Positions 4,465 to 30,810 of a DNA stretch of 38,241 nt are shown piece by piece. Position 1 is the stretch's first letter; the number at the start of each line of letters is the position of its first letter. The stretch is from contig JAUCBJ010000553.1 of NCBI GenBank assembly GCA_032718475.1, positions 1-38,241 on the forward strand. The letters are read 5' to 3'. The DNA comes from Nemertoderma westbladi (lineage: Eukaryota; Animalia; Xenacoelomorpha). A program made the position numbers and the translations under genes. The notes below the pieces were generated by a model, which searched no databases, was not told the DNA's origin, and saw only the letters and a list, made by a program, of their open reading frames with translations.

Positions 4465-4681
4465 ACTGGATAAGGTTGAAGAAATTCGTCCAATCAAAAA
4501 GATTCGGCGAAACGATGCTGAGCGCCCTCTAGCGGCAGTTGAAGACGAGGAAGAAGAAGAAGACGATGCGGCTTTCACTTCCAAGAGGGCAAAGTCCTTA
4601 TCGACTATCGCTATCGATGTGACGGCGAGGCATTTATTTCTAGACATCGAGAACGTAGCGAACGTAGTGTTACTGAGTATG
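4465..4681 (+). CDS. SYMPK: Symplekin exon B
   Basis: atttag|A acceptor completes the CG|A codon; acidic linker then IDVTARHL...ENVANVVLLSM; donor ATG|gtgagt (phase 0). Confidence 0.92.
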
Positions 4682-6820
4682 GTGAGTCAACGTAGTGCTA
4701 CTGAGTATGGTAAGTCAACGTAGCGAACGTAGTGTTACTGAGTATGGTGAGTCAACGTAGTGCTACTGAGTATGGTGAGTCAACGTAGTGCTACTGAGTA
4801 TGGTGAGTCAACATAGCCGACGTAGTGCTATGGAGTATGGTGAGTCAACGTAGTACTACTAGTATGGTGAGTCAACGTAGTGCTACTGAGTATGGTGAGT
4901 CAACATAGCCAACGTAGTGCTACGGAGTATGGTGAGTCAACATAGCCAACGTAGTGCTACGGAGTATGGTTTGTCAACGTAGTGCTACTGAGTATGGTGA
5001 GTCAACATAGCCAACTTAGTGCTACTGAGTATGGTGAGTCAACGAGTGCTACTGAGTAAGGTGAGTCAACATCGCCAACGTAGTGCTACTGATTATGGTT
5101 TGTCAACGTAGTGCTACTGAGTATGGTGAGCCAACGAGTGCTACTGGGTATGGTGAGTCAACATAGCCAACGTAGTGCTACGGAGTATGGATTGTCAACG
5201 TAGTGCTACTGAGTATGGTGAGTCAACATAGCTAACGTAGTGCTACTGAGTATGGTGAGTCAACATAGCTAACGTAGTGCTACTGAGTATGGTGAGTCAA
5301 CGTAGTGCTACTGAGTATGGTGCAACGTAGTGCTACTGAGTATGGTGAGCCAACGAGTGCTACTGAGTATGGTGAGTCAACGTAGTGCTACTGAGTATGG
5401 TGAGTCAACGTAGTGCTACTGAGTATGGTGAGCCAACGAGTGCTACTGAGTATGGTGAGTCAACGAAGTGCTACTGAGTATGGTGAGTCAACATAGCCAA
5501 CGTAGTGCTACGGAGTATGGTTTGTCAACGTAGTGCTAATGAGTATGGTGAGTCAACATAGTTAACGTAGTGCTACTGAGTATGGTGAGTCAATGTAGTG
5601 CTACTGAGTATGACGAGTCAACGTAGTGCTACTGAGTATGGTGAGCCAACGAGTGCTACTGAGTATGGTGAGTCAACGTAGTGCTACTGAGTATGGTGAG
5701 CCAACGAGTGCTACTGAGTATGGTGAGTCAACGTAGTGCTACTGAATATGGTGAGTCAACGTAGTGCTACTGAGTATGGTGAGCCAACGAGTGCTACTGA
5801 GTATGGTGAGTCAACGTAGTGCTACTGAGTATTGTGAGTCAACATAGCCAACGTAGTTATACTGAGTATGGTGAGTCAACGTAGTGCTACTGAGTATGGT
5901 GAGCCAACGAGTGCTACTGAGTATGGTGAGTCAACGTAGTGCTACTATGGTGAGTCAACATAGCCAACGTAGTGTTACTGAGTATGGTGAGTCAACATAG
6001 CTAACGTAGTGCTACTGAGTATGGTGAGTCAACATAGCCAACGTAGTGCTACTGAGTATGGTGAGTCAGCATAGCTAACGTAGTGCTACTGAGTATGGTG
6101 AGTCAACATAGCCAACGTAGTTATACTGAGTATGGTGAGCCAACGAGTGCTACTGAGTATGGTGAGTCAACGAGTGCTACTGAGTATGGTGAGTCAACGT
6201 AGTGCTACTATTGTGAGTCAACATAGCCAACGTAGTGTTACTGAGTATGGTGAGTCAACATAGCTAACGTAGTGCTACTGAGTATGGTTAGCCAACGTAG
6301 TCAACGTAGTTATACTGAGTATGGTGAGCCAACGAGTGCTACTGAGTATGGTGAGTCAACGTAGTCAACGTAGTGTTACTGAGTATGGTGAGTCAACATA
6401 GCCAACGTAGTGCTACTGGGTATGGTGAGTCAACGTAGCGAACGTAGTGTTACTGAGTATGGTGAGTCAACATAGCCAACGTACTTACGTAGTGCTACTG
6501 AGTATGGTGAGTCAACATAGCCAACGTAGTGCTACTGAGTATGGTGAGTCAACGTAGTGTTACTGAGTATGGTAAGTGGACGTTTCTAACGTAGTGCTAC
6601 TGAGTATGGTTAGCCAACGTAGTCAACGTAGTTATACTGAGTATGGTGAGCCAACGAGTGCTACTGAGTATGGTGAGTCAACGTAGTCAACGTAGTGTTA
6701 CTGAATATGGTGAGTCAACATAGCTAACGTAGTGCTACTGAGTATGGTTAGCCAACGTAGTGCTACTGAGTATGGTGAGTCAACGTAGCCAACGTAGTGT
6801 TGCTGATTATGATAAATCAA
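4652..6820 (+). repeat. Donor-spanning minisatellite 1: 28/37-bp units, roughly 70 copies
   Basis: Unit (AACATAGCC)AACGTAGTGCTACTGAGTATG|GTGAGTC is the end of exon B plus the first 7 intron nt. The last copy is degenerate. Copy number is estimated from length. Confidence 0.96.
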
Positions 6821-6960: not shown

Positions 6961-7116
6961 TTACACCTACCAGAAAGGATTCCAGTCCACTTCCACTCCT
7001 CCTACACTCCCATAGCAGCTGCCGGTGGGGGAATGCAGATCAAACACGTAACTCGTCTCCTAGCAACGCAAATGACGGCCGCTGGGATCGGGCCGGGGAT
7101 CGAATTTGTAGCTAAA
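6961..7116 (+). CDS. SYMPK: Symplekin exon C (not in the ORF track)
   Basis: ttttacag| acceptor; LHLPERIPVHFHSSYTPIAAAGGGMQIKHVTRLLATQMTAAGIGPGIEFVAK; donor AAA|gttagt (phase 0). Confidence 0.93.
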
Positions 7117-7278
7117 GTTAGTCACATAGGCAGCCATTAGATTATCTAATTTGTACCTAAAGTTAGTCACATAGGCAGCCATTAGATTATCGGATTTGTA
7201 GCTAAAGTTAGTCACATAGGCAGCCATTAGATTATCGGATTTGTAGCTAAAGTTAGTCACATAGGCAGCCATTAGATT
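7099..7278 (+). repeat. Donor-spanning minisatellite 2: 45-bp unit x4
   Basis: ATCGRATTTGTAGCTAAA|GTTAGTCACATAGGCAGCCATTAGATT at 7099, 7144, 7189 and 7234. Confidence 0.96.
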
Positions 7279-7461: not shown

Positions 7462-7644
7462 CAAGAAGCGGACGCCATCGAGAAAAAGCGTAGGCGGCTG
7501 GAAGAAATGGAGCAGACAAAGACGGCTGCCATAGCAACGGTGCTGGGAGGCACCGTCGTCAAGGAGACAGCTGCTGTATCTTCCGGCTACACAATACCGC
7601 CGCCAGAGTTGGACGAAATCAATAAAATGATAACGCAACCTTCG
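7462..7644 (+). CDS. SYMPK: Symplekin exon D (poorly conserved linker)
   Basis: tttgcag| acceptor; open GC-richer frame QEADAIEKKRRRLEE...ITQPS; donor TCG|gtaaga; phase 0/0 fits both neighbours. Confidence 0.85.
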
Positions 7645-7730
7645 GTAAGATATGTCGTTGTCATAGCAACCTTCGGTAAGATATGTCGTTGTCATAGCAA
7701 CCTTCGGTAAGAATTGTCGTTGTCATAGCA
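7635..7730 (+). repeat. Donor-spanning minisatellite 3: 31-bp unit x3
   Basis: GCAACCTTCG|GTAAGATATGTCGTTGTCATA at 7635, 7666 and 7697. Confidence 0.95.
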
Positions 7731-8223: not shown

Positions 8224-8413
8224 CTATTGGGGAGTATGTGTTAGAGGATATGCGAGGTAGACAGGATCTGGCTGTAGCTTGGCTCTACCAGGAGTACTCA
8301 ATTTACGAAGGTTACACTGCCACCAACGGCCGGGGCGACCTGGAACCTTACGATGAGTACCTAACTAACCTACTAATGGCCTGTAAGGAGCGACCGGACT
8401 CACAGAAAGAAGG
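8224..8413 (+). CDS. SYMPK: Symplekin exon F
   Basis: tttgcag|CT acceptor; YVLEDMRGRQDLAVAWLYQEY...ERPDSQKEG; donor GG|gttggt (phase 2). Confidence 0.93.
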
Positions 8414-8953: not shown

Positions 8954-9149
8954 ATTATTCACTAAACTGTTGCTAGAGGCGCCTATTATTACGGACCGCG
9001 CCCAGGATGTCCTGTGTAAATTCTGTCTGGACCCGGCGCATTATGAATCAGGTCTCCAGGCAACCGCATACATTGTGGAGATGCGGCCGGGACAAAGCCA
9101 ACAGTTCACAAGAATATTAGTGAGAATGAGTACAGTGGATAATGCAGAG
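8954..9149 (+). CDS. SYMPK: Symplekin exon G
   Basis: atttag|A acceptor; LFTKLLLEAPIIT...ILVRMSTVDNAE; donor GAG|gttggt (phase 0). Confidence 0.93.
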
Positions 9150-12100
9150 GTTGGTTAACAGAATGAGTACAGTGGATAATGCAGAGGTTGGTTAACAGAC
9201 CCCCACACCCTAGTGAGAATGAGTACAGTGGATAATGCAGAGGTTGGTTAACAGAACGAGTACAGTGAATAATGCAGAGGTTGGTTAACAGATCCCCACA
9301 CCCTAATGAGAATGAGTACAGTGGATAATGCAGAGGTTGTTTAACAGAATGAGTACAGTGGATAATGCAGAGGTTGGTTAACAGAATGAGTACAGTGGAT
9401 AATGCAGAGGTTGGTTAACAGAATGAGTACAGTGGATAATGCAGAGGTTGGTTAACAGAATGAGTACAGTGGATAATGCAGAGGTTGGTTAACAGAATGA
9501 GTACAGTGGATAATGCAGAGGTTGGTTAACAGACCCCCACACCCTATAGTGAGAATGAGTACAGTGGATAATGCAGAGGTTGGTTAACAGACCCCCACAC
9601 CCTATAGTGAGAATGAGTACAGTGGATAATGCAGAGGTTGGTTAACAGACCCCCACACCCTATAGTGAGAATGAGTACAGTGGATAATGCAGAGGTTGGT
9701 TAACAGAATGAGTACAGCGGATAATGCAGAGGTTGGTTAACAGACCCCCACACCCTAGTGAGAATGAGTACAGTGGATAATGCAGAGGTTGGTTAACAGA
9801 CCCCCACACCCTATAGTGAGAATGAGTACAGTGGATAATGCAGAGGTTGGTTAACAGACCCCCACACCCTAGTGAGAATGAGTACAGTGGATAATGCAGA
9901 GGTTGGTTAACAGACCCCCACACCCTATAGTGAGAATGAGTACAGTGGATAATGCAGAGGTTGGTTAACAGAATGAGTACAGCGGATAATGCAGAGGTTG
10001 GTTAACAGACCCCCACACCCTATAGTGAGAATGAGTACAGTGGATAATGCAGAGGTTGGTTAACAGAATGAGTACAGTGGATAATGCAGAGGTTGGTTAA
10101 CAGACCCCCACACCCTAGTGAGAATGAGTACAGTGGATAATGCAGAGGTTGGTTAACAGAATGAGTACAGCGGATAATGCAGAGGTTGGTTAATAGACCC
10201 CCACACCCTAGTGAGAATGAGTACAGTGGATAATGCAGAGGTTGGTTAACAGACCCCCACACCCTAGTGAGAATGAGTACAGTGGATAATGCAGAGGTTG
10301 GTTAACAGACCCCCACACCCTAGTGAGAATGAGTACAGTGGATAATGCAGAGGTTGGTTAACAGACCCCCACACCCTAGTGAGAATGAGTACAGTGGATA
10401 ATGCAGAGGTTGGTTAACAGAATGAGTACAGCGGATAATGCAGAGGTTGGTTAATAGACCCCCACACCCTAGTGAGAATGAGTACAGTGGATAATGCAGA
10501 GGTTGGTTAACAGACCCCCACACCCTAGTGAGAATGAGTACAGTGGATAATGCAGAGGTTGGTTAACAGACCCCCACACCCTATAGTGAGAATGAGTACA
10601 GTGGATAATGCAGAGGTTGGTTAACAGAATGAGTACAGCGGATAATGCAGAGGTTGGTTAACAGACCCCCACACCCTAGTGAGAATGAGTACAGTGGATA
10701 ATGCAGAGGTTGGTTAACAGACCCCCACACCCTATAGTGAGAATGAGTACAGTGGATAATGCAGAGGTTGGTTAACAGAATGAGTACAGCGGATAATGCA
10801 GAGGTTGGTTAACAGACCCCCACACCCTAGTGAGAATGAGTACAGTGGATAATGCAGAGGTTGGTTAACAGACCCCCACACCCTATAGTGAGAATGAGTA
10901 CAATGGATAATGCAGAGATTGGTTAACAGAATGAGTGCAGTGGATAATGCAGAGGTTGGTTAACAGAATGAGTACAGTGGATAATGCAGAGGTTGGTTAA
11001 CAGAATGAGTACAGTGGATAATGCAGAGGTTGGTTAACAGACCCCCACACTCTAGTGAGAATGAGTACAGTGGATAATGCAGAGGTTGGTTAACAGACCC
11101 CCACACCCTATAGTGAGAATGAGTACAGTGGATAATGCAGAGGTTGGTTAACAGAATGAGTACAGCGGATAATGCAGAGGTTGGTTAACAGACCCCCACA
11201 CTCTAGTGAGAATGAGTACAGTGGATAATGCAGAGGTTGGTTAACAGACCCCCACACCCTATAGTGAGAATGAGTACAGTGGATAATGCAGAGGTTGGTT
11301 AACAGAATGAGTACAGTGGATAATGCAGAGGTTGGTTAACAGACCCCCACACCCTATAGTGAGAATGAGTACAGTGGATAATGCAGAGGTTGGTTAACAG
11401 AATGAGTACAGTGGATAATGCAGAGATTGGTTAACAGAATGAGTACAGTGGATAATGCAGAGGTTGGTTAACAGAATGAGTACAGCGGATAATGCAGAGG
11501 TTGGTTAACAGAATGAGTACAATGGATAATGCAGAGGTTGGTTAACAGAATGAGTACAGTGGATAATGCAGAGGTTGGTTAACAGAATGAGTACAGCGGA
11601 TAATGCAGATGTTGGTTAACAGACCCCCACACCCTAGTGAGAATGAGTACAGTGGATAATGCAGAGGTTGGTTAACAGAATGAGTACCGTGGATAATGCA
11701 GAGGTTGGTTAACAGAATGAGTACAGTGGATAATGCAGAGATTGGTTAACAGAATGAGTACAGTGGATAATGCAGAGGTTGGTTAACAGAATGAGTACAG
11801 TGGATAATGCAGAGGTTGGTTAACAGAATGAGTACAGCGGATAATGCAGAGGTTGGTTAACAGACCCCCACACCCTAGTGAGAATGAGTACAGTGGATAA
11901 TGCAGAGGTTGGTTAACAGACCCCCACACCCTAGTGAGAATGAGTACAGTGGATAATGCAGAGGTTGGTTAACAGAATGAGTACAGTGGATAATGCAGAG
12001 GTTGTTTAACAGAATGAGTACAGTGGATAATGCAGAGGTTGGTTAACAGACCCCCACACCCTAGTGAGAATGAGTACAGTGGATAATGCAGAGGTTGGTT

Positions 12101-15100
12101 AACAGAATGAGTACAGTGGATAATGCAGAGGTTGGTTAACAGAATGAGTGCAGTGGATAATGCAGAGGTTGGTTAACAGAATGAGTACAGCGGATAATGC
12201 AGAGGTTGGTTAACAGACCCCCACACCCTAGTGAGAATGAGTACAGTGGATAATGCAGAGGTTGGTTAACAGATCCCCACACCCTAGTGAGAATGAGTAC
12301 AGTGGATAATGCAGAGGTTGGTTAACAGAATGAGTACAGTGGATAATGCAGAGGTTGGTTAACAGAATGAGTGCAGTGGATAATGCAGAGGTTGGTTAAC
12401 AGAATGAGTACAGCGGATAATGCAGAGGTTGGTATACAGACCCCCACACCCTAGTGAGAATGAGTACAGTGGATAATACAGAGGTTGGTTAACAGAATGA
12501 GTACAGTGGATAATGCAGAGGTTGGTATACAGACCCCCACACCCTAGTGAGAATGAGTACAGTGGATAATGCAGAGGTTGGTTAACAGACCCCCACACCC
12601 TAGTGAGAATGAGTACAGTGGATAATGCAGAGGTTGGATAACAGAATGAGTACAGTGGATAATGCAGAGGTTGGTTAACAGAATGAGTACAGTGGATAAT
12701 GCAGAGGTTGGTTAACAGAATGAGTACAGCGGATAATGCAGAGGTTGGTATACAGACCCCCACACCCTAGTGAGAATGAGTACAGTGGATAATACAGAGG
12801 TTGGTTAACAGAATGAGTACAGTGGATAATGCAGAGGTTGGTTAACAGACCCCCACACCCTAGTGAGAATGAGTACAGTGGATAACGCAGAGGTTGGTTA
12901 ACAGAATGAGTACAGTGGATAATGCAGAGGTTGGTTAACAGACCCCCACACCCTAGTGAGAATGAGTACAGTGGATAATACAGAGGTTGGTTAACAGAAT
13001 GAGTACAGTGGATAATGCAGAGGTTGGTTAACAGAATGAGTACAGTGGATAATACAGAGGTTGGTTAACAGAATGAGTACAGTGGATAATGCAGAGGTTG
13101 GTTAACAGACCCCCACACCCTAGTGAGAATGAGTACAGTGGATAATGCAGAGGTTGGTTAACAGACCCCCACACCCTAGTGAGAATGAGTACAGTGGATA
13201 ATGCAGAGGTTGGTTAACAGAATGAGTACAGTGGATAATGCAGAGGTTGGTTAACAGAATGAGTACAGCGGATAATGCAGAGGTTGGTTAACAGACCCCC
13301 ACACCCTAGTGAGAATGAGTACAGTGGATAATGCAGAGGTTGGTTAACAGAATGAGTACAGTGGATAATGCAGAGGTTGGTTAACAGAATGAGTGCAGTG
13401 GATAATGCAGAGGTTGGTTAACAGAATGAGTACAGCGGATAATGCAGAGGTTGGTTAACAGACCCCCACACCCTAGTGAGAATGAGTACAGTGGATAATA
13501 CAGAGGTTGGTTAACAGAATGAGTACAGTGGATAATGCAGAGGTTGGTTAACAGAATGAGTACAGCGGATAATGCAGAGGTTGGTTAACAGAATGAGTAC
13601 AGTGGATAATGCAGAGGTTGGTTAACAGAATGAGTACAGTGGATAATGCAGAGGTTGGTTAACAGAATGAGTACAGCGGATAATGCAGAGGTTGGTTAAC
13701 AGACCCCCACACCCTAGTGAGAATGAGTACAATGGATAATGCAGAGGTTGGTTAACAGAATGAGTACAGCGGATAATGCAGAGGTTGGTTAACAGACCCC
13801 CACACCCTAGTGAGAATGAGTACAGTGGATAATGCAGAGGTTGGTTAACAGACCCCCACACCCTAGTGAGAATGAGTACAGTGGATAATGCAGTGGTTAA
13901 CAGAATGAGTACAGTGGATAATGCAGAGGTTGGTTAACAGAATGAGTACAATGGATAATGCAGAGGTTGGTTAACAGAATGAGTACAGTGGATAATGCAG
14001 AGGTTGGTTAACAGAATGAGTACAGTGGATAATGCAGAGGTTGGTTAACAGAATGAGTACAATGGATAATGCAGAGGTTGGTTAACAGACCCCCACACTC
14101 TAGTGAGAATGAGTACAGTGGATAACGCAGATGTTGGTTAACAGACCCCCACACCCTATAGTGAGAATGAGTACAGTGGATAATGCAGAGGTTGGTTAAT
14201 AGAATGAGTACAGTGGATAACGCAGAGGTTGGTTAACAGACCCCCACACCCTATAGTGAGAATGAGTACAGTGGATAATGCAGAGGTTGGTTAACAGAAT
14301 GAGTACAGTGGATAATGCAGAGGTTGGTTAACAGACCCCCACACCCTAGTGAGAATTAGTACAGTGGATAATGCAGAGGTTGGTTAACAGAATGAGTACA
14401 GTGGATAATGCAGAGGTTGGTTAACAGAATGAGTACAGTGGATAATACGAGGTTGGTTAACAGACCCCCACACCCTATAGTGAGAATGAGTACAGTGGAT
14501 AATGCAGAGGTTGGTTAACAGAATGAGTACAGTGGATAATGCAGAGGTTGGTTAACAGACCCCCACACCCTAATGAGAATGAGTACAGTGGATAATGCAG
14601 AGGTTGGTTAACAGAAAGAGTACAGTGGATAATGCAGAGGTTGGTTAACAGAATGAGTACAGTGGATAATGCGGAGGTTGGTTAACAGAATGAGTACAAT
14701 GGATAATGCAGAGGTTGGTTAACAGACCCCCACACCCTATAGTGAGAATGAGTACAGTGGATAATGCAGAGGTTGGTTAACAGAATGAGTACAGTGGATA
14801 ATGCAGAGGTTGTTTAACAGAATGAGTACAGTGGATAATGCAGAGGTTGGTTAACAGAATGAGTACAGTGGATAATGCAGAGGTTGGTTAACAGAATGAG
14901 TACAGTGGATAATGCAGAGGTTGGTTAACAGAATGAGTACAGTAGATAATGCAGAGGTTGGTTAACAGAATGAGTACAGTGGATAATGCAGAGATTGGTT
15001 AACATAATGAGTACAGCGGATAATGCAGAGGTTGGTTAACAGAATGAGTACAGCGGATAATGCAGAGGTTGGTTAACAGAATGAGTACAGTGGATAATGC

Positions 15101-18100
15101 AGAGGTTGGTTAACAGAATGAGTACAGCGGATAATGCAGAGGTTGGTTAACAGACCCCCACACCCTAGTGAGAATGAGTACAGTGGATAATGCAGAGGTT
15201 GGTTAACAGAATGAGTACCGTGGATAATGCAGAGGTTGGTTAACAGAATGAGTACAGTGGATAATGCAGAGATTGGTTAACAGAATGAGTACAGTGGATA
15301 ATGCAGAGGTTGGTTAACAGAATGAGTACAGCGGATAATGCAGAGGTTGGTTAACAGACCCCCACACCCTAGTGAGAATGAGTACAGTGGATAATGCAGA
15401 GGTTGGTTAACAGAATGAGTACAGTGGATAATGCAGAGGTTGTTTAACAGAATGAGTACAGTGGATAATGCAGAGGTTGGTTAACAGAATGAGTACAGTG
15501 GATAATGCAGAGGTTGGTTAACAGAATGAGTACAGCGGATAATGCAGAGGTTGGTATACAGACCCCCACACCCTAGTGAGAATGAGTACAGTGGATAATG
15601 CAGAGGTTGGTTAACAGAATGAGTACAGTGGATAATGCAGAGGTTGGTTAACAGAATGAGTGCAGTGGATAATGCAGAGGTTGGTTAACAGAATGAGTAC
15701 AGCGGATAATGCAGAGGTTGGTTAACAGACCCCCACACCCTAGTGAGAATGAGTACAGTGGATAATGCAGAGGTTGGTTAACAGACCCCCACACCCTAGT
15801 GAGAATGAGTACAGTGGATAATGCAGAGGTTGGTTAACAGAATGAGTACAGTGGATAATGCAGAGGTTGGTTAACAGAATGAGTACAGTGGATAATGCAG
15901 AGGTTGGTTAACAGAATGAGTACAGTGGATAATGCAGAGGTTGGTTAACAGAATGAGTACAGCGGATAATGCAGAGGTTGGTATACAGACCCCCACACCC
16001 TAGTGAGAATGAGTACAGTGGATAATGCAGAGGTTGGTTAACAGACCCCCACACCCTAGTGAGAATGAGTACAGTGGATAATGCAGAGGTTGGTTAACAG
16101 ACCCCCACACCCTAGTGAGAATGAGTACAGTGGATAATGCAGAGGTTGGTTAACAGACCCCCACACCCTAGTGAGAATGAGTACAGTGGATAATACAGAG
16201 GTTGGTTAACAGAATGAGTACAGTGGATAATGCAGAGGTTGGTTAACAGACCCCCACACCCTAGTGAGAATGAGTACAGTGGATAATGCAGAGGTTGGTT
16301 AACAGACCCCCACACCCTAGTGAGAATGAGTACAGTGGATAATGCAGAGGTTGGTTAACAGACCCCCACACCCTAGTGAGAATGAGTACAGTGGATAATG
16401 CAGAGGTTGGTTAACAGAATGAGTACAGTGGATAATGCAGAGGTTGGTTAACAGAATGAGTGCAGTGGATAATGCAGAGGTTGGTTAACAGAATGAGTAC
16501 AGCGGATAATGCAGAGGTTGGTTAACAGACCCCCACACCCTAGTGAGAATGAGTACAGTGGATAATACAGAGGTTGGTTAACAGAATGAGTACAGTGGAT
16601 AATGCAGAGGTTGGTTAACAGAATGAGTACAGCGGATAATGCAGAGGTTGGTTAACAGAATGAGTACAGTGGATAATGCAGAGGTTGGTTAACAGAATGA
16701 GTACAGTGGATAATGCAGAGGTTGGTTAACAGAATGAGTACAGCGGATAATGCAGAGGTTGGTTAACAGACCCCCACACCCTAGTGAGAATGAGTACAAT
16801 GGATAATGCAGAGGTTGGTTAACAGAATGAGTACAGCGGATAATGCAGAGGTTGGTTAACAGACCCCCACACCCTAGTGAGAATGAGTACAGTGGATAAT
16901 GCAGAGGTTGGTTAACAGACCCCCACACCCTAGTGAGAATGAGTACAGTGGATAATGCAGAGGTTGGTTAACAGAATGAGTACAGTGGATAATGCAGAGG
17001 TTGGTTAACAGAATGAGTACAGTGGATAATGCAGAGGTTGGTTAACAGAATGAGTACAATGGATAATGCAGAGGTTGGTTAACAGAGCAGAGGTTGGTTA
17101 ACAGAATGAGTACAATGGATAATGCAGAGGTTGGTTAACAGACCCCCACACCCTATAGTGAGAATGAGTACAGTGGATAATGCAGAGGTTGGTTAACAGA
17201 ATGAGTACAGTGGATAATGCAGAGGTTGGTTAACAGAATGAGTACAGTGGATAATACGAGGTTGGTTAACAGACCCCCACACCCTATAGTGAGAATGAGT
17301 ACAGTGGATAATACAGAGGTTGGTTAACAGAATGAGTACAGTGGATCATGCAGAGGTTGGTTAACAGAATGAGTACAGTGGATAATACGAGGTTGGTTAA
17401 CAGACCCCCACACCCTATAGTGAGAATGAGTACAGTGGATAATGCAGAGGTTGGTTAACAGAATGAGTACAGTGGATAATGCAGAGGTTGGTTAACAGAC
17501 CCCCACACCCTAATGGGAATGAGTACAGTGGATAATGCAGAGGTTGGTTAACAGACCCCCACTCTAGTGAGAATGAGTACAGTGGATAATGCAGAGGTTG
17601 GTTAACAGAAAGAGTACAGTGGATAATGCAGAGGTTGGTTAACAGAATGAGTACAGTGGATAATGCAGAGGTTGGTTAACAGAATGAGTACAATGGATAA
17701 TGCAATGAGTACAATGGATAATGCAGAGGTTGGTTAACAGACCCCCACACCCTATAGTGAGAATGAGTACAGTGGATAATGCAGAGGTTGGTTAACAGAA
17801 TGAGTACAGTGGATAATGCAGAGGTTGGTTAACAGAATGAGTACAGTGGATAATGCAGAGGTTGGTTAACAGAATGAGTACAGTGGATAATGCAGAGGTT
17901 GGTTAACAGAATGAGTACAGTGGATAATGCAGAGGTTGGTTAACAGAATGAGTACAGTGGATAATGCAGAGGTTGGTTAACAGAACGAGTACAGTGAATA
18001 ATGCAGAGGTTGGTTAACAGAATGAGTACAGTGGATAATGCAGAGGTTGGTTAACAGAATGAATACAGTGGATAATGCAGAGGTTGGTTAACAGAATGAG

Positions 18101-21100
18101 TACAGTGGATAATGCAGAGGTTGGTTAACAAACCCCCACACCCTAGTGAGAATGAGTACAGTGGATAACGCAGAGGTTGGTTAACAGAATGAGTACAGTG
18201 GATAATGCAGAGGTTGGTTAACAGAATGAGTACAGTGGATAATGCAGAGGTTGGTTAACAAACCCCCACACCCTAGTGAGAATGAGTACAGTGGATAACG
18301 CAGAGGTTGGTTAACAGAATGAGTACAGTGGATAATGCAGAGGTTGGTTAACAGAATGAGTACAGTGGATAATGCAGAGGTTGGTTAACAGACCCCCACA
18401 CCCTATAGTGAGAATGAGTACAGTGGATAATGCAGAGGTTGGTTAACAGAATGAGTACAGTGGATAATGCAGAGGTTGGTTAACAGAATGAGTACAGTGG
18501 ATAATGCAGAGGTTGGTTAACAGAATGAGTACAGCGGATAATGCAGAGGTTGGTTAACAGACCCCCACACCCTAGTGAGAATGAGTACAATGGATAATGC
18601 AGAGGTTGGTTAACAGAATGAGTACAGCGGATAATGCAGAGGTTGGTTAACAGACCCCCACACCCTAGTGAGAATGAGTACTGTGGATAATGCAGAGGTT
18701 GGTTAACAGACCCCCACACCCTAGTGAGAATGAGTACAGTGGATAATGCAGTGGTTAACAGAATGAGTACAGTGGATAATGCAGAGGTTGGTTAACAGAA
18801 TGAGTACAATGGATAATGCAGAGGTTGGTTAACAGAATGAGTACAGTGGATAATGCAGAGGTTGGTTAACAGAATGAGTACAGTGGATAATGCAGAGGTT
18901 GGTTAACAGAATGAGTACAATGGATAATGCAGAGGTTGGTTAACAGACCCCCACACTCTAGTGAGAATGAGTACAGTGGATAACGCAGATGTTGGTTAAC
19001 AGACCCCCACACCCTATAGTGAGAATGAGTACAGTGGATAATGCAGAGGTTGGTTAACAGAATGAGTACAGTGGATAACGCAGAGGTTGGTTAACAGACC
19101 CCCACACCCTATAGTGAGAATGAGTACAGTGGATAATGCAGAGGTTGGTTAACAGAATGAGTACAGTGGATAATGCAGAGGTTGGTTAACAGACCCCCAC
19201 ACCCTAGTGAGAATTAGTACAGTGGATAATGCAGAGGTTGGTTAACAGAATGAGTACAGTGGATAATGCAGAGGTTGGTTAACAGAATGAGTACAGTGGA
19301 TAATACGAGGTTGGTTAACAGACCCCCACACCCTATAGTGAGAATGAGTACAGTGGATAATGCAGAGGTTGGTTAACAGAATGAGTACAGTGGATAATGC
19401 AGAGGTTGGTTAACAGACCCCCACACCCTAATGAGAATGAGTACAGTGGATAATGCAGAGGTTGGTTAACAGAACCCCACACCCTAGTGAGAATGAGTAC
19501 AGTGGATAATGCAGAGGTTGGTTAACAGAAAGAGTACAGTGGATAATGCAGAGGTTGGTTAACAGAATGAGTACAGTGGATAATGCGGAGGTTGGTTAAC
19601 AGAATGAGTACAATGGATAATGCAGAGGTTGGTTAACAGAACCCCACACCCTATAGTGAGAATGAGTACAGTGGATAATGCAGAGGTTGGTTAACAGAAT
19701 GAGTACAGTGGATAATGCAGAGGTTGGTTAACAGAATGAGTACAGTGGATAATGCAGAGGTTGGTTAACAGAATGAGTACAGTGGATAATGCAGAGGTTG
19801 GTTAACAGAATGAGTAGAGTGGATAATGCAGAGGTTGGTTAACAGAATGAGTACAGTGGATAATGCAGAGGTTGGTTAACAGAATGAGTACAGTGGATAA
19901 TGCAGAGGTTGGTTAACAGAATGAGTACAGTGGATAATGCAGAGGTTGGTTAACAGAATGAGTACAGTGGATAATGCAGAGGTTGGTTAACAGAATGAGT
20001 ACAGTGGATAATGCAGAGGTTGGTTAACAAACCCCCACACCCTAGTGAGAATGAGTACAGTGGATAACGCAGAGGTTGGTTAACAGAATGAGTACAGTGG
20101 ATAATGCAGAGGTTGGTTAACAGAATGAGTACAGTGGATAATGCAGAGGTTGGTTAACAAACCCCCACACCCTAGTGAGAATGAGTACAGTGGATAACGC
20201 AGAGGTTGGTTAACAGAATGAGTACAGTGGATAATGCAGAGGTTGGTTAACAGAATGAGTACAGTGGATAATGCAGAGGTTGGTTAACAGACCCCCACAC
20301 CCTATAGTGAGAATGAGTACAGTGGATAATGCAGAGGTTGGTTAACAGAATGAGTACAGCGGATAATGCAGAGGTTGGTTAACAGAATGAGTACAGTGGA
20401 TAATGCAGAGGTTGGTTAACAGAATGAGTACAGTGGATAATGCAGAGGTTGGTTAACAGAATGAGTACAGCGGATAATGCAGAGGTTGGTTAACAGACCC
20501 CCACACCCTAGTGAGAATGAGTACAATGGATAATGCAGAGGTTGGTTAACAGAATGAGTACAGCGGATAATGCAGAGGTTGGTTAACAGACCCCCACACC
20601 CTAGTGAGAATGAGTACAGTGGATAATGCAGAGGTTGGTTAACAGACCCCCACACCCTAGTGAGAATGAGTACAGTGGATAATGCAGAGGTTGGTTAACA
20701 GAATGAGTACAGTGGATAATGCAGAGGTTGGTTAACAGAATGAGTACAGTGGATAATGCAGAGGTTGGTTAACAGAATGAGTACAATGGATAATGCAGAG
20801 GTTGGTTAACAGAGCAGAGGTTGGTTAACAGAATGAGTACAATGGATAATGCAGAGGTTGGTTAACAGACCCCCACACCCTATAGTGAGAATGAGTACAG
20901 TGGATAATGCAGAGGTTGGTTAACAGAATGAGTACAGTGGATAATGCAGAGGTTGGTTAACAGAATGAGTACAGTGGATAATACGAGGTTGGTTAACAGA
21001 CCCCCACACCCTATAGTGAGAATGAGTACAGTGGATAATGCAGAGGTTGGTTAACAGAATGAGTACAGTGGATCATGCAGAGGTTGGTTAACAGAATGAG

Positions 21101-24100
21101 TACAGTGGATAATACGAGGTTGGTTAACAGACCCCCACACCCTATAGTGAGAATGAGTACAGTGGATAATGCAGAGGTTGGTTAACAGAATGAGTACAGT
21201 GGATAATGCAGAGGTTGGTTAACAGACCCCCACACCCTAATGGGAATGAGTACAGTGGATAATGCAGAGGTTGGTTAACAGACCCCCACTCTAGTGAGAA
21301 TGAGTACAGTGGATAATGCAGAGGTTGGTTAACAGAAAGAGTACAGTGGATAATGCAGAGGTTGGTTAACAGAATGAGTACAGTGGATAATGCAGAGGTT
21401 GGTTAACAGAATGAGTACAATGGATAATGCAATGAGTACAATGGATAATGCAGAGGTTGGTTAACAGACCCCCACACCCTATAGTGAGAATGAGTACAGT
21501 GGATAATGCAGAGGTTGGTTAACAGAATGAGTACAGTGGATAATGCAGAGGTTGGTTAACAGAATGAGTACAGTGGATAATGCAGAGGTTGGTTAACAGA
21601 ATGAGTACAGTGGATAATGCAGAGGTTGGTTAACAGAATGAGTACAGTGGATAATGCAGAGGTTGGTTAACAGAATGAGTACAGTGGATAATGCAGAGGT
21701 TGGTTAACAGAACGAGTACAGTGAATAATGCAGAGGTTGGTTAACAGAATGAGTACAGTGGATAATGCAGAGGTTGGTTAACAGAATGAATACAGTGGAT
21801 AATGCAGAGGTTGGTTAACAGAATGAGTACAGTGGATAATGCAGAGGTTGGTTAACAAACCCCCACACCCTAGAGAGAATGAGTACAGTGGATAACGCAG
21901 AGGTTGGTTAACAGAATGAGTACAGTGGATAATGCAGAGGTTGGTTAACAGAACGAGTACAGTGAATAATGCAGAGGTTGGTTAACAGAATGAGTACAGT
22001 GGATAATGCAGAGGTTGGTTAACAGAATGAGTACAGTGGATAATGCAGAGGTTGGTTAACAGACCCCCACACCCTATAGTGAGAATGAGTACAGTGGATA
22101 ATGCAGAGGTTGGTTAACAGAATGAGTACAGTGGATAATGCAGAGGTTGGTTAACAGAATGAGTACAGTGGATAATGCAGAGGTTGGTTAACAGAATGAG
22201 TACAGCGGATAATGCAGAGGTTGGTTAACAGACCCCCACACCCTAGTGAGAATGAGTACAATGGATAATGCAGAGGTTGGTTAACAGAATGAGTACAGCG
22301 GATAATGCAGAGGTTGGTTAACAGACCCCCACACCCTAGTGAGAATGAGTACAGTGGATAATGCAGAGGTTGGTTAACAGACCCCCACACCCTAGTGAGA
22401 ATGAGTACAGTGGATAATGCAGTGGTTAACAGAATGAGTACAGTGGATAATGCAGAGGTTGGTTAACAGAATGAGTACAATGGATAATGCAGAGGTTGGT
22501 TAACAGAATGAGTACAGTGGATAATGCAGAGGTTGGTTAACAGAATGAGTACAGTGGATAATGCAGAGGTTGGTTAACAGAATGAGTACAATGGATAATG
22601 CAGAGGTTGGTTAACAGACCCCCACACTCTAGTGAGAATGAGTACAGTGGATAACGCAGATGTTGGTTAACAGACCCCCACACCCTATAGTGAGAATGAG
22701 TACAGTGGATAATGCAGAGGTTGGTTAACAGAATGAGTACAGTGGATAACGCAGAGGTTGGTTAACAGACCCCCACACCCTATAGTGAGAATGAGTACAG
22801 TGGATAATGCAGAGGTTGGTTAACAGAATGAGTACAGTGGATAATGCAGAGGTTGGTTAACAGACCCCCACACCCTAGTGAGAATTAGTACAGTGGATAA
22901 TGCAGAGGTTGGTTAACAGAATGAGTACAGTGGATAATGCAGAGGTTGGTTAACAGAATGAGTACAGTGGATAATACGAGGTTGGTTAACAGACCCCCAC
23001 ACCCTATAGTGAGAATGAGTACAGTGGATAATGCAGAGGTTGGTTAACAGAATGAGTACAGTGGATAATGCAGAGGTTGGTTAACAGACCCCCACACCCT
23101 AATGAGAATGAGTACAGTGGATAATGCAGAGGTTGGTTAACAGAACCCCACACCCTAGTGAGAATGAGTACAGTGGATAATGCAGAGGTTGGTTAACAGA
23201 AAGAGTACAGTGGATAATGCAGAGGTTGGTTAACAGAATGAGTACAGTGGATAATGCGGAGGTTGGTTAACAGAATGAGTACAATGGATAATGCAGAGGT
23301 TGGTTAACAGAACCCCACACCCTATAGTGAGAATGAGTACAGTGGATAATGCAGAGGTTGGTTAACAGAATGAGTACAGTGGATAATGCAGAGGTTGGTT
23401 AACAGAATGAGTACAGTGGATAATGCAGAGGTTGGTTAACAGAATGAGTACAGTGGATAATGCAGAGGTTGGTTAACAGAATGAGTAGAGTGGATAATGC
23501 AGAGGTTGGTTAACAGAATGAGTACAGTGGATAATGCAGAGGTTGGTTAACAGAATGAGTACAGTGGATAATGCAGAGGTTGGTTAACAGAATGAGTACA
23601 GTGGATAATGCAGAGGTTGGTTAACAGAATGAGTACAGTGGATAATGCAGAGGTTGGTTAACAGAATGAGTACAGTGGATAATGCAGAGGTTGGTTAACA
23701 AACCCCCACACCCTAGTGAGAATGAGTACAGTGGATAACGCAGAGGTTGGTTAACAGAATGAGTACAGTGGATAATGCAGAGGTTGGTTAACAGAATGAG
23801 TACAGTGGATAATGCAGAGGTTGGTTAACAAACCCCCACACCCTAGTGAGAATGAGTACAGTGGATAACGCAGAGGTTGGTTAACAGAATGAGTACAGTG
23901 GATAATGCAGAGGTTGGTTAACAGAATGAGTACAGTGGATAATGCAGAGGTTGGTTAACAGACCCCCACACCCTATAGTGAGAATGAGTACAGTGGATAA
24001 TGCAGAGGTTGGTTAACAGAATGAGTACAGTGGATAATGCAGAGGTTGGTTAACAGAATGAGTACAGTGGATAATGCAGAGGTTGGTTAACAGAATGAGT

Positions 24101-27100
24101 ACAGTGGATAATGCAGAGGTTGGTTAACAGAATGAGTACAGCGGATAATGCAGAGGTTGGTTAACAGACCCCCACACCCTAGTGAGAATGAGTACAATGG
24201 ATAATGCAGAGGTTGGTTAACAGAATGAGTACAGCGGATAATGCAGAGGTTGGTTAACAGACCCCCACACCCTAGTGAGAATGAGTACAGTGGATAATGC
24301 AGAGGTTGGTTAACAGACCCCCACACCCTAGTGAGAATGAGTACAGTGGATAATGCAGAGGTTGGTTAACAGAATGAGTACAGTGGATAATGCAGAGGTT
24401 GGTTAACAGAATGAGTACAATGGATAATGCAGAGGTTGGTTAACAGAATGAGTACAGTGGATAATGCAGAGGTTGGTTAACAGAATGAGTACAGTGGATA
24501 ATGCAGAGGTTGGTTAACAGAATGAGTACAATGGATAATGCAGAGGTTGGTTAACAGACCCCCACACTCTAGTGAGAATGAGTACAGTGGATAACGCAGA
24601 GGTTGGTTAACTGACCCCCACACCCTATAGTGAGAATGAGTACAGTGGATAATGCAGAGGTTGGTTAACAGAATGAGTACAGTGGATAACGCAGAGGTTG
24701 GTTAACAGAATGAGTACAGTGGATAATGCAGAGGTTGGTTAACAGAATGAGTACAGTGGATAATGCAGAGGTTGGTTAACAGAATGAGTACAGTGGATAA
24801 CGCAGAGGTTGGTTAACAGAATGAGTACAGTGGATAATGCAGAGGTTGGTTAACAGAATGAGTACAATGGATAATGCAGAGGTTGGTTAACAGACCCCCA
24901 CACTCTAGTGAGAATGAGTACAGTGGATAACGCAGAGGTTGGTTAACAGACCCCCACACCCTATAGTGAGAATGAGTACAGTGGATAATGCAGAGGTTGG
25001 TTAACAGAATGAGTACAGTGGATAATGCAGAGGTTGGTTAACAGAATGAGTACAGTGGATAATGCAGAGGTTGGTTAACAGAATGAGTACAATGGATAAT
25101 GCAGAGGTTGGTTAACAGACCCCCACACTCTAGTGAGAATGAGTACAGTGGATAACGCAGAGGTTGGTTAACAGACCCCCACACCCTATAGTGAGAATGA
25201 GTACAGTGGATAATGCAGAGGTTGGTTAACAGAATGAGTACAGTGGATAACGCAGAGGTTGGTTAACAGAATGAGTACAGTGGATAATGCAGAGGTTGGT
25301 TAACAGAATGAGTACAGTGGATAATGCAGAGGTTGGTTAACAGAATGAGTACAGTGGATAACGCAGAGGTTGGTTAACAGAATGAGTACAGTGGATAATG
25401 CAGAGGTTGGTTAACAGAATGAGTACAATGGATAATGCAGAGGTTGGTTAACAGACCCCCACACCCTATAGTGAGAATGAGTACAGTGGATAATGCAGAG
25501 GTTGGTTAACAGAATGAGTACAGTGGATAACGCAGAGGTTGGTTAACAGAATGAGTACAGTGGATAATGCAGAGGTTGGTTAACAGAATGAGTACAGTGG
25601 ATAATGCAGAGGTTGGTTAACAGACCCCCACACCCTATAGTGAGAATGAGTACAGTGGATAATGCAGAGGTTGGTTAACAGAATGAGTACAGTGGATAAC
25701 GCAGAGGTTGGTTAACAGAATGAGTACAGTGGATAATGCAGAGGTTGGTTAACAGAATGAGTACAGTGGATAATGCAGAGGTTGGTTAACAGAATGAGTA
25801 CAGTGGATAACGCAGAGGTTGGTTAACAGAATGAGTACAGTGGATAATGCAGAGGTTGGTTAACAGAATGAGTACAATGGATAATGCAGAGGTTGGTTAA
25901 CCGACCCCCACACCCTATAGTGAGAATGAGTACAGTGGATAATGCAGAGGTTGGTTAACAGAATGAGTACAGTGGATAACGCAGAGGTTGGTTAACAGAC
26001 CCCCACACCCTATAGTGAGAATGAGTACAGTGGATAATGCAGAGGTTGGTTAACAGAATGAGTACAGTGGATAACGCAGAAGTTGGTTAACAGAATGAGT
26101 ACAGTGGATAATGCAGAGGTTGGTTAACAGAATGAGTACAGTGGATAATGCAGAGGTTGGTTAACAGAATGAGTACAGTGGATAACGCAGAGGTTGGTTA
26201 ACAGAATGAGTACAGTGGATAATGCAGAGGTTGGTTAACAGAATGAGTACAATGGATAATGCAGAGGTTGGTTAACAGACCCCCACACCCTATAGTGAGA
26301 ATGAGTACAGTGGATAATGCAGAGGTTGGTTAACAGAATGAGTACAGTGGATAATGCAGAGGTTGGTTAACAGACCCCCACACTCTAGTGAGAATGAGTA
26401 CAGTGGATAACGCAGAGGTTGGTTAACAGACCCCCACACCCTATAGTGAGAATGAGTACAGTGGATAATGCAGAGGTTGGTTAACAGAATGAGTACAGTG
26501 GATAACGCAGAGGTTGGTTAACAGAATGAGTACAGTGGATAATGCAGAGGTTGGTTAACAGAATGAGTACAGTGGATAATGCAGAGGTTGGTTAACAGAA
26601 TGAGTACAGTGGATAATGCAGAGGTTGGTTAACAGAATGAGTACAATGGATAATGCAGAGGTTGGTTAACAGAATGAGTACAATGGATAATGCAGAGGTT
26701 GGTTAACAGACCCCCACACCCTATAGTGAGAATGAGTACAGTGGATAATGCAGAGGTTGGTTAACAGAATGAGTACAGTGGATAATGCAGAGGTTGGTTA
26801 ACAGACCCCCACACCCTATTGAGAATGAGTACAGTGGATAATGCAGAGGTTGTTTAACAGAATGAGTACAGTGGATAACGCAGAGGTTGGTTAACAGACC
26901 CCCACACTCTAGTGAGAATGAGTACAGTGGATAACGCAGAGGTTGGTTAACAGAATGAGTACAGTGGATAATGCGAGGTTGGTTAACAGAATGAGTACAA
27001 TGGATAATGCAGAGGTTGGTTAACAGACCCCCACACCCTAGTGAGAATGAGTGCAGTGGATAATGCAGAGGTTGGTTAACAGAATGAGTACAGTGGATAT

Positions 27101-27484
27101 TGCAGAGGTTGGTTAACATACCCCCACACCCTAGTGAGAATGAGTACAGTGGATAACGCAGAGGTTGGTTAACAGAATGAGTACAGTGGATAATGCAGAG
27201 GTTGGTTAACAGAATGAGTACAATGGATAATGCAGAGGTTGGTTAACAGACCCCCACACCCTAGTGAGAATGAGTGCAGTGGATAATGCAGAGGTTGGTT
27301 AACAGAATGAGTACAGTGGATAATGCGAGGTTGGTTAACAGAATGAGTACAGTGGATAATGCAGAGGTTGGTTAACAGAATGAGTACAGTGGATAATGCA
27401 GAGGTTGGTTAACAGACACCCACACCCTAGTGAGAATGAGTACAGTGGATAATGCAGAGGTTGGTTAACAGACCCCCACACCCT
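9118..27484 (+). repeat. Donor-spanning satellite 4: 18.4 kb of interleaved 37-bp and 56/58-bp units (~400+ copies)
   Basis: Short unit AGAATGAGTACAGTGGATAATGCAGAG|GTTGGTTAAC; the long unit adds AGACCCCCACACCCT(AT)AGTG. The array starts inside exon G and ends ...CCCCACACCCT before unique intron sequence. Copy number is estimated from length. Confidence 0.98.
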
Positions 27485-27635
27485 GTTCTGTACCTTAAAA
27501 AGTTTTTAAAATGGAATTTTTATTTTATCAAGTAATGGGTGGGTATAATAATTTTCATAAAAAATAGAAGTAGTCCCAGGACAAAATATACGTTTTTTTG
27601 ATATTCTAAAAACTGATAGTGTGGCATTGTTGGCT

Positions 27636-28124
27636 AGCATTTGTAGGTTTTTTACTATGCTGAATCGAATGTGATTATATTCCATTTCCGAAAATTGAAC
27701 TGGATGCTATTTTTCGTGCACCTAATAAGTGGGCGTGGCACTTAAAATTTTGAAAAATACGAGATTCGGAAAATAAAACAAAGTTGAGATTTCAACGCAC
27801 ATTTATAGGTTTTCTGGACCACTGAATCAATTGAAAGTATTATAGAAGCCTGAAGACTTAGTGGTTCGGCATTTTTGGTGCACCAAAATTAGGGAGTGGC
27901 ACTTATTCAAATTTTGAAAATTACCACGCCCTAATTGTGGTGTACCAATAATGACGTACCACTAAGACTTGAAGCTTCAATATTACTTTAAATCGATTAA
28001 ACGGGCCAGAAAACCCATAAAAATGCGTTGAAATCAAAACTTCGGAGTATTTAAGGAATATTGCAATTTTGAAAATTTGAAGTGCCACGCCCTAATCTTA
28101 GTGCACCAAAAATGACGTACCACT
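27636..28124. mobile_element. Foldback-like long imperfect palindrome built from ~160-bp units (probable non-autonomous DNA element)
   Basis: Arms are symmetric about ~27912. GATTTCAACGCACATTTATAGGTTTTCTGG pairs with CCAGAAAACCCATAAAAATGCGTTGAAATC, and GTGCACCTAATAAGTGGGCGTGGCACTT with AAGTGCCACGCCCTAATCTTAGTGCAC. Outer limits are approximate. Confidence 0.65.
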
Positions 28125-28798
28125 TCCCTTACATACTTATATAGAGTAGTAGAGTGCTCCACACGAATCAGAATCAATAAAAAAAAGCCCCAATATAAAG
28201 AATTAGTAACTCACAAATGACCTTGTAAAATTCGAAAATTTAAAAAAATTTCTGCTGGGGACCAAATTTTGAGGTGGCACCCACATTGAAAAGTTGAAAT
28301 CTAATTGCAACGCAGTTTTTTGCAAAAGATGCGCCATTAAATTTGACTAATTCTCGTAAAAAATTGGGCTGGTATAATGTGGTTGCATAGATAAAGCAAT
28401 TAAAAACTAGGAAGGGGCCGATTCGCCCCCCCCCCCCCCCCACAGTGCGAATAGGGATAATGATGAGGCATTCTGATTGGTTGATGGAGGAATTATGTTC
28501 CTCGTGTTGCCTCTAACTTACTCGGTGCGGTGGTCTAACTGATGGATAAGCTAAAGGGAAGAGGGCCGAGTGTCTAAACATCCACAGATCGGCCGCAACC
28601 TAATTAAATATTAAACATTTGTAAAATAAATAAAAGTAATAAAATAAAGTATTTGTTGTTGCATTTTAACCGGGGTTTTTCGGTAATATCGTTTTTTTAA
28701 TAATAATATTTCAATATTAGTGGTGCTAAGTAAGTCCTTTGGACCATTAGGGTTATAATGAGTCGTGTAATAATGTTTAACTAATGGTTTTATCGTAG

Positions 28799-28937
28799 AT
28801 TCGGGATGCGGCAGTAACCATGGCCCATCAGCTGCACACCAATCCCGCTTGTAAGTCGCACGTAACCCAGTTAGCGTTGGAATACATGGGTTACATCGCA
28901 CTGCCGAAACCTCCCTCACACTTATTCCAAGAAATAG
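28799..28937 (+). CDS. SYMPK: Symplekin exon H (not in the ORF track)
   Basis: atcgtag| acceptor; IRDAAVTMAHQLHTNPACKSHVTQLALEYMGYIALPKPPSHLFQEI fills the expected gap (VR..ALNYL..PNPPS.LF); donor G|gttagt (phase 1). Confidence 0.88.
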
Positions 28938-29331: not shown

Positions 29332-29642
29332 GTGAATCTTTACCCGAGGATGCAGTATGGACTGAGGAAATTGCCAGACGATTCCTCTATTTCTACCTCA
29401 GCCTTATCGCCCTGGACAATAAACTCATCCATAGACTGGCAGCGGTGTTTGTAGAAGCAGTGCCCGACGTTAAGCGAACCATTCTGAGGACTCTAGACAC
29501 ACCAATGAGACTAATGAGTCTCAACTCACCTGAATTACTCACACTCGTAGAAGAGTGCCCGTCTGGAGCTGAAACACTGATCACAAGAATGCTACATATA
29601 CTCACAGAGAAAGCCCTGCCCCCTCCAGCACTTGTCACTAGG
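29332..29642 (+). CDS. SYMPK: Symplekin exon I
   Basis: ttttatag|GT acceptor; WTEE...KLIHRLAAVF...NSPELLTLVEECPSGAETLITRMLHILTEKALPPPALVTR; donor AGG|gtacgt (phase 0). Confidence 0.93.
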
Positions 29643-30810
29643 GTACGTATACTCACAGAGAAAGCCCTGCCCCCTCCAGCACTGGTCACTAGGGTACGTA
29701 TACTCACAGAGAAAGCCCTGCCCCCTCCAGCACTGGTCACTAGGGTACGTATACTCACAGAGAAAGCCCTGCCACCTCCAGCACTGGTCACTAGGGTACG
29801 TATATTCACAGAGAAAGCCCTGCCACCTCCAGCACTGGTCACTAGGGTACGTATACTCACAGAGAAAGCCCTGCCACCTCCAGCACTGGTCACTAGGGTA
29901 CGTATATTCACAGAGAAAGCCCTGCCACCTCCAGCACTGGTCACTAGGGTACGTATACTCACAGAGAAAGCCCTGCCACCTCCAGCACTGGTCACTAGGG
30001 TTCGTATATTCACAGAGAAAGCCCTGCCACCTCCAGCACTGGTCACTAGGGTACGTATACTCACAGAGAAAGCCCTGCCACCTCCAGCACTGGTCACTAG
30101 GGTTCGTATATTCACAGAGAAAGCCCTGCCACCTCCAGCACTGGTCACTAGGGTACGTATACTCACAGAGAAAGCCCTCCCACCTCCAGCACTGGTCACT
30201 AGGGTACGTATACTCACAGAGAAAGCCCTGCCACCTCCAGCACTGGTCACTAGGGTACGTATACTCACAGAGAAAGCCCTGCCACCTCCAGCACTGGTCA
30301 CTAGGGTTCGTATATTCACAGAGAAAGCCCTGCCACCTCCAGCACTGGTCACTAGGGTACGTATACTCACAGAGAAAGCCCTCCCACCTCCAGCACTGGT
30401 CACTAGGGTACGTATACTCACAGAGAAAGCCCTGCCCCCTCCAACACTGGTCACTAGGGTACGTATACTCACAGAGAAAGCCCTGCCACCTCCAGCACTG
30501 GTCACTAGGGTTCGTATATTCACAGAGAAAGCCCTGCCACCTCCAGCACTGGTCACTAGGGTACGTATACTCACAGAGAAAGCCCTCCCACCTCCAGCAC
30601 TGGTCACTAGGGTACGTATACTCACAGAGAAAGCCCTGCCCCCTCCAGCACTGGTCACTAGGGTACATATACTCACAGAGAAGCCCTGCCCCCTCCAGCA
30701 CTGGTCACTAGGGTACATATACTCACAGAGAAGCCCTGCCCCCTCCGCCTCCAGCCCCTGCCCCCTCCAGCACTGGTCACTAGGGTACGTATATACTCAT
30801 AGAGAAAGCC
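29598..30810 (+). repeat. Donor-spanning minisatellite 5: 51-bp in-frame unit, ~23 copies
   Basis: ATACTCACAGAGAAAGCCCTGCCMCCTCCAGCACTGGTCACTAGG|GTACGT encodes ILTEKALPPPALVTRVR. There are 21 full-length copies to 30668, followed by indel-bearing copies. Confidence 0.97.

Follow-up and report, generated by a model that had tools for sequence, protein, structure and literature searches.

Symplekin and the array at the end of its exon G

We analysed a stretch of 38,241 nucleotides (nt) from Nemertoderma westbladi (contig JAUCBJ010000553.1 of assembly GCA_032718475.1; hereafter the window), which carries on its + strand a gene identified by protein comparison as symplekin, together with tandem arrays that occupy 30,499 of the 38,241 bases (80% of the window). 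The largest of these, at 9118-27484 on the + strand, is one tandem array of 18.4 kilobases (kb) in which the end of symplekin exon G and its 5′ splice site are reiterated. The Pfam family Symplekin_C (PF12295) matched exons J and K with E values of 6e-21 and 3.9e-30, and protein searches with exons I and K returned full-length symplekins of many animals. Identity to proteins in the collection reached no more than 60% with exon I and 72% with exon K, the most conserved exon.

The exons were placed by tblastn with three homologs. Joined together, exons C to L give a frame of 672 amino acids with no stop codon. Aligned over its whole length with symplekins, in about 677 columns, it shows 44-46% identity. 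This model has 10 donors, nine of them placed by a spliced contig and that of exon L by homology. Across the junction between exons G and H the alignment with the homolog is gapless (LVRMSTVDNAE|IRDAAVTMA against ILELSLHEKIE|VRNQAVHVA; here and below a vertical bar marks a junction). The features of this part of the gene are as follows, where X4 is the sequencing run that served as RNA-type evidence.

8954..9149, + strand: exon G, 196 nt, ending in phase 0 with GAT AAT GCA GAG; placed by the X4 contig piece 8953-9149 and the gapless homolog alignment
9117..9125, + strand: unused donor-like site TTA|GTGAGA, 30 nt upstream of the authentic donor and also in phase 0
9147..9155, + strand: authentic 5′ splice site GAG|GTTGGT, the first copy, which is used; the X4 contig ends at 9149
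9118..27484, + strand: exon G array, units of 37/56 nt, about 400 copies, donor GAG|GTTGGT, first copy used
16576..24489, + strand: internal duplications in the array; 16576-18265 repeats at +3727 and 18276-20818 at +3671
27485..28798, + strand: unique 3′ part of the intron, with the acceptor ttttatcgtag| at its end
28799..28937, + strand: exon H, 139 nt; start from the loose end of the X4 contig (28799-28828) and the open frame

The 3′ end of exon H at 28937 is a model placement from the open frame and the homolog alignment. Exon G runs into the first repeat unit and is conserved, indicating that the exon is the source of the repeat and not the reverse.

Structure of the exon G array

The array consists of short units arranged head to tail on a single strand, and its first unit, 9123-9159, crosses the authentic exon-intron boundary at 9149/9150. 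It is built of two forms of unit. The 37-nt unit reads AGAATGAGTACAGTGGATAATGCAGAG|GTTGGTTAAC, and the long unit of 56/58 nt is this 37-nt unit followed by the spacer AGACCCCCACACCCTA(TA)GTG. Direct 37-to-37 adjacencies number 261, and the spacers are either 19 nt long (60 occurrences of the commonest form) or 21 nt long (35 occurrences). Tandem Repeats Finder reported overlapping periods of 37, 56, 58, 93, and 95 nt between 9123 and 27485. The 3′ edge of the array falls within a long-unit spacer, ..CACACCCT|GTTCTG. A lag-identity scan requiring at least 97% identity in 200-nt windows, which gave the duplications in the feature list, also showed that 13547-14623 repeats at +8529.

In the whole window, GCAGAGGTTGGTTAAC occurs in 375 exact copies (the first at 9144 and the last at 27454) and GGTTGGTTAAC in 395, and an exact count of the reverse strand gave no copy of either. 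A search for ungapped 37-mers with at most six substitutions from the junction unit returned 408 units, and the intact 9-mer GAG|GTTGGT was present in 392 of them, so that the splice-site sequence is repeated unchanged within the intron. When indels were allowed (up to three edits), 419 donor cores were counted. These numbers bear out the claim of the original prediction, a reading of the letters of this DNA made before our analysis, that about 400 near-identical decoy donors fill 9118..27484. Its further claim that nearly every unit shares at least 27 nt of exon context with the true donor stands when a mismatch is tolerated, since 388 of the 408 units have at most one mismatch to the junction unit. 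As a statement of exact identity it holds for 248 of the 408, which equal the authentic junction 9123-9159 over the full 37 nt (27 exonic and 10 intronic).

With three hypervariable exonic positions left out (34, 38, and 32 variant units), the exonic and the intronic part of the unit each averaged about 2.4 non-consensus counts per site. The donor motif thus decays no faster, and is held no tighter, than its surroundings, and there is no signal of selection on it.

The assembled mRNA joins exon G to exon H across the array

None of the runs listed is on record as RNA, and run X4 is labelled only 'DNA?'. Its contigs cover the exons of the gene at a depth of 615.6 and the intervening introns at 0, and they are spliced; X4 was therefore treated as a transcriptome. 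A 3268-nt X4 contig contains the pieces 7462-7643, 7859-8071, 8222-8412, and 8953-9149, with GT..AG joints at 7643->7859 (cut +1), 8071->8222, and 8412->8953 (cut +1). Past 9149 the contig continues with ATTCGGGATGCGGCAGTAACCATGGCCCAT, a 30-mer (ATTCGGG..) that is unique in the window and lies at 28799, directly behind ttttatcgtag. Contigs were mapped at this intron with its unique flanks plus two or three units, and the join of exons G and H is a loose contig end matched to 28799 rather than a listed joint. The mRNA thus joins 9149 to 28799, and 19,649 nt are removed, of which 18.4 kb are the array. The locus is transcribed, and the boundary of exon G used in the contig is the one at 9149/9150 that had been taken for the true donor; homology and the spliced contig agree on it. 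On both counts the original prediction passes the refutation test that it had set.

The depth of X4 in the bin 9120-9184 was 284.1, which is 30/65 of 615.6, so that the 3268-nt contig alone accounts for this bin. In the next bin, 9185-9236, the depth was 0, indicating that array units are absent from all X4 contigs. Partly spliced contigs did not appear in X4 either. Two further runs of the same study from other organisms, X6 and X7, gave no match at 95% likeness.

Reading past the first donor of exon G gives V-G-stop (GTT GGT TAA), as had been predicted. The donor-like site TTA|GTGAGA (9119/9120), which looks stronger than the authentic donor, was considered as the end of exon G and rejected: the X4 contig reads through it, and the homologs have the 10 residues that would be lost. 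About 115 long units repeat this site, in the form CCCTAG or CCCTATAG followed by TGAGAA (71 and 44 copies). GTTGGT had been called a non-consensus donor, but it is no outlier within the gene, as the donor of exon F is also G|GTTGGT and 5 of the 10 donors in the exon C to L model have T at +3 (7116, 8073, 8413, 9149, and 28937; GTTAGT twice, GTTGGT twice, and GTTCGC once). Set against the consensus CAG|GTAAGT, this share of T at +3 is unusually high.

Copy number of the array in DNA runs

The copy number was assessed in the DNA runs X1-X3, which come from two samples and two studies. The k-mer depth of the array unit exceeded that of flanking single-copy contigs by factors of about 213 (X1), 60-80 (X2), and 38 (X3). 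The contig with the unit junction had a depth of 4054 against about 19 for single-copy sequence in X1, and of 260 against 6.8 in X3. The ratios of unit to single-copy depth differ among the runs, and contig depths are too crude for the copies to be counted from them. These results show that the array is genuinely high-copy, and its exact length rests on the assembly.

At 8474-8519, in the small TAAAGTTTATAACTT array, X2 and X3 are without one 15-nt unit (15 nt left out at 8474). The missing unit directly indicates copy-number polymorphism at a small array neighbouring that of exon G.

Further arrays at donors of the same gene

Six arrays in the window begin inside the end of an exon and copy its donor. 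Besides that of exon G, they are the following.

4652..6811, + strand: exon B array, 28 nt (also 37/65-nt), about 68 copies, donor ..AGTATG|GTGAGTC, 43 exact copies of ATGGTGAGT
7099..7278, + strand: exon C array, 45 nt x4, donor AAA|GTTAGT, first copy used
7635..7730, + strand: exon D array, 31 nt x3.1, donor TCG|GTAAGA, first copy used
29593..30790, + strand: exon I array, 51 nt x22.7, last 50 nt of exon I plus the donor AGG|GTACGT, first copy used
32671..33526, + strand: exon K array, 38 nt x22.7, end of exon K (WEGFIKCCE) plus the donor GAG|GTACGT, first copy used

The donor of exon B was placed by homology only. At the other five arrays (exons C, D, G, I, and K) the X4 contig shows which copy is used, and in 5 of 5 it is the first. 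At exon C, the loose end of the contig before 7462 is 7087-7116, which is unique in the window. The exon D joint, given above as 7643->7859 (cut +1), corresponds to 7644/7860. At exon I, the contig passes from the unique exon I sequence through exactly 50 nt of the unit into exon J at 30854. At exon K, it extends to 32697, and its loose end is the start of exon L at 33618. The strict first-donor rule, one of the options that had been put forward for exon G, is supported at every array of the gene that could be checked.

The exon I array is in frame, with 17 codons per unit, and no stop follows its donor for 394 codons. Of its 51-nt unit 50 nt are exonic, and the whole array is an open frame of 511 codons. 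The donor GTACGT arises at the joint of two units, from the last G of one and TACGT of the next. The exon itself has TACAT where the array units have TACGT, and two distal units keep GTACAT.

The window has 10 arrays in total; 6 have their start no more than 60 nt upstream of a donor, and none ends at an acceptor. When arrays were placed at random, 0 of 200,000 placements gave six donor-anchored arrays; this comparison is descriptive only, as the window was picked for its oddity.

Choice of the first donor

Local enhancers cannot discriminate between the true donor and the decoys, since 27 nt or more of exonic context are common to them. The first copy is set apart by its position alone: it is transcribed first, and it lies 196 nt from the acceptor of exon G. 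As a further candidate, RNA structure that masks the decoys was tried and rejected; the RNA of 9100-9399 folds worse than all 200 shuffled versions (z = +4.0). Very probably, the array is an 18.4-kb minisatellite derived from the last ~30 nt of exon G and the start of the intron, the mRNA is spliced from 9149 to 28798/28799, and the roughly 390 further copies of the donor are likely ignored. Commitment of the splicing machinery to the most upstream donor would come about during transcription, with this donor paired with the 3′ splice site of exon G itself. The selection rule, whether 5′-to-3′ scanning or first-come commitment, is presumed here by analogy with the experiments on human F7.

Several points weigh against this interpretation. 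The RNA evidence consists of a single assembled contig, and the single run that it comes from has the label 'DNA?'. Contigs drop rare variants, and a low level of decoy use, possibly removed by nonsense-mediated decay (NMD), may go unseen. At the exon B array, where the donor is placed by homology, the second copy (4707-4715), ATG|GTAAGT, is closer to consensus than the first, ATG|GTGAGT, and thus the better-looking donor. The exact length of the exon G array is assembly-based, and its near-identical internal 3.7-kb blocks could in part be assembly duplication.

The last point could be taken further, to the view that assembly error has made the array, at 18 kb, too long and that the true locus has far fewer units. 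Near-identical blocks of 1.1-2.5 kb do recur at lags of 3671, 3727, and 8529, short-read runs cannot bridge the array, and X1 may be the same sample as the assembly of the window. We nevertheless regard such inflation as very unlikely in view of the unit k-mer depths in all three DNA runs. It is also conceivable that decoys are used appreciably and that the clean mRNA results mainly from NMD of the products that contain a stop. Any downstream donor would leave GTT GGT TAA in frame, and contigs cannot reveal rare or unstable isoforms. The exon I array, however, argues against this: its products would be open for 394 codons and would escape NMD, yet only the first donor appears in the contig. 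Nor does any X4 contig lie on array units, and in-frame pseudo-sites are unused in F7 too (PMC1557585). Reliance on NMD, which the original prediction had offered as one way out, is not supported as a necessity, and we consider it unlikely.

Stepwise removal of the intron, recursive or nested, through the AG|GT sites had been offered as another. The array contains 409 AG|GT pairs, and 115 copies of a C-rich tract with TAG at its end occur in the long units. Upstream of the 409 sites, however, the pyrimidine fraction has a mean of 0.33 and a maximum of 0.39, compared with 0.56-0.83 at the 10 real acceptors, so that a polypyrimidine tract is lacking; the C-rich tract is followed by TG and not by GT, and hence cannot regenerate a donor; and X4 is free of partly spliced contigs. 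Stepwise removal is barely credible on these grounds. A function for the array has also to be weighed, namely that it loads many U1 small nuclear ribonucleoproteins (snRNPs) and so shields the long intron from premature 3′-end processing or tunes the output of symplekin. The 392 intact U1-type sites lie accessible in RNA with little structure, symplekin acts in 3′-end processing itself, as a scaffold, and the arrays of the gene are anchored at donors far above chance. Against this, AATAAA and ATTAAA each occur 0 times in the array, which leaves no poly(A) signals to suppress, and the donor positions are conserved no better than the rest of the unit. Moreover, five other arrays of unrelated sequence, with 3 to ~68 copies, stand at other donors, which looks mutational rather than like a tuned device. 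A U1 platform is thus highly doubtful; the bulk binding of U1 that the original prediction had raised as possible is unlikely to be a function, and nothing points to a function for the array.

The locus is an extreme natural test of 5′ splice-site choice: the gene is essential, its donor looks weak and has about 390 sequence-identical and structurally accessible decoys behind it, and the assembled mRNA is clean all the same. The in-frame sister array of exon I separates the choice of splice site from clean-up by NMD without an experiment.

Probable origin and growth of the arrays

The sequence ..TAGTG stands before the end of exon G, just as it does before the long units. Together with the position of the array edge within a long-unit spacer, this points to an ancestral junction of the form exon..AGTGAGAATGAGTACAGTGGATAATGCAGAG|GTTGGTTAACAGACCCCCACACCCT.. 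and to a first unit of 56 nt. The ancestral duplicated unit would accordingly have extended from ..AGTGAGAATG.. on the exon side to ..CACACCCT on the intron side. The 37-nt unit probably came from the 56-nt unit by a 19-nt deletion between two AGA repeats, and later growth would have proceeded by unequal exchange, including that of the ~3.7-kb blocks.

We infer that the array is a tolerated by-product without function, and it is likely harmless. A neutral by-product leaves the anchoring of 6 of 10 arrays at donors, with 0 of 200,000 random placements, unexplained. It is possible, if rather unlikely, that junction arrays arise preferentially at 5′ splice sites through a process linked to transcription or to splicing, such as fork stalling or template switching at U1-bound nascent RNA or at splicing intermediates. 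If this were so, a gene with six independent donor arrays and no acceptor array would serve as a hotspot in which the process becomes measurable. G-richness prone to R-loops was examined as a shared cause and found no support; the GC skew is +0.25 to +0.41 in the exon G array but -0.20 in 30001-31000, a bin that lies mostly in the 51-nt array of exon I. The wider question raised by the window is why arrays anchor so strongly at donors, and the genealogy of the units (56 nt, then 37 nt, then 3.7-kb blocks) makes the exon G locus good material for it.

Other repeats in the window

Upstream, 1-2974 holds a 475-nt unit repeated 6.3 times with 99% identity, which is AT-rich (GC content ~0.30) and probably lies in an upstream intron of symplekin. 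Downstream, 33783-38241 is an 18-nt array of CCAATGTAGATCAGTGTA with at least 248 copies that reaches the end of the window; it starts 37 nt past the donor of exon L without copying that donor. In the DNA runs, the contig depths of short interspersed repeats at 8530-8600, 8730-8860, and 31890-32100 sum to 10^4 to 5x10^5, and these repeats are also present in X4. An Rfam search of 27400-33800 gave no family match, and the high-copy repeat at 31880-32100 had no look-alike among the other stretches of DNA compared.

Comparison with known systems

A full-text literature search for this type of repeat returned nothing beyond PMC1557585, PMC3087553, and PMC3902484. In amphioxus, tandem repeats across exon-intron boundaries, termed 'mirages', are described in Adh3, troponin C, the globins BflGb6 and BflGb9, and PGBD5; splicing is normal, the generating mechanism is given as unknown, and the sizes are 3-6 units in BflGb6 and triplications in PGBD5 (PMC3087553, PMC3902484). 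The symplekin array resembles them in that the unit spans the boundary, the splice signals are reiterated, and the mRNA is normal. In amphioxus several loci per genome are affected, and here several arrays lie in one gene. The unit numbers quoted for mirages are small, whereas the exon G array has about 400 units over 18.4 kb and stands in a gene with six arrays, all on the donor side.

The other counterpart is human F7, where a 37-base-pair variable number of tandem repeats spans the boundary of intron 7. Mutagenesis showed that its pseudo-sites are functional and that the most upstream site alone is chosen (Borensztajn et al. 2006, PMC1557585), and the in-frame pseudo-sites are also unused, pointing to a choice oriented 5′ to 3′ (PMC1557585). 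Other human cases named in the introduction of that paper are 6-16, CBS IVS13, LAMIN B2, and PDGF. As in symplekin, the first monomer of F7 spans the boundary, identical 5′ pseudo-sites follow, and the most upstream is used. The unit is 37 nt in both by coincidence, and both donors are weak (UGG|gugggu and GAG|GTTGGT). The difference lies in extent, F7 having 5-9 repeats with 4 exonic nt per unit and symplekin about 400 with 27-32 exonic nt per unit, and in the standing of the mechanism, which was tested by mutagenesis in F7 and is suggested by likeness in symplekin. The choice of splice site that the original prediction had presented as a problem was overrated, as the question had already been raised and answered experimentally for F7 intron 7 (PMC1557585).

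Recursive splice sites (ratchet points) share with the exon G array a long intron with internal AG|GT junctions. The AG|GT sites of the array differ in having neither a polypyrimidine tract nor branch-site context, and the array is not a member of that class. The unit numbers quoted in PMC1557585, PMC3087553, and PMC3902484 are 3-25, compared with about 400 in symplekin. The locus is therefore a very large instance of a known junction-spanning minisatellite, of the mirage or F7 type, and not a new kind of element, and it extends the rule of the most upstream donor, known for 5-9 copies in human F7, to a distant invertebrate with hundreds of copies.

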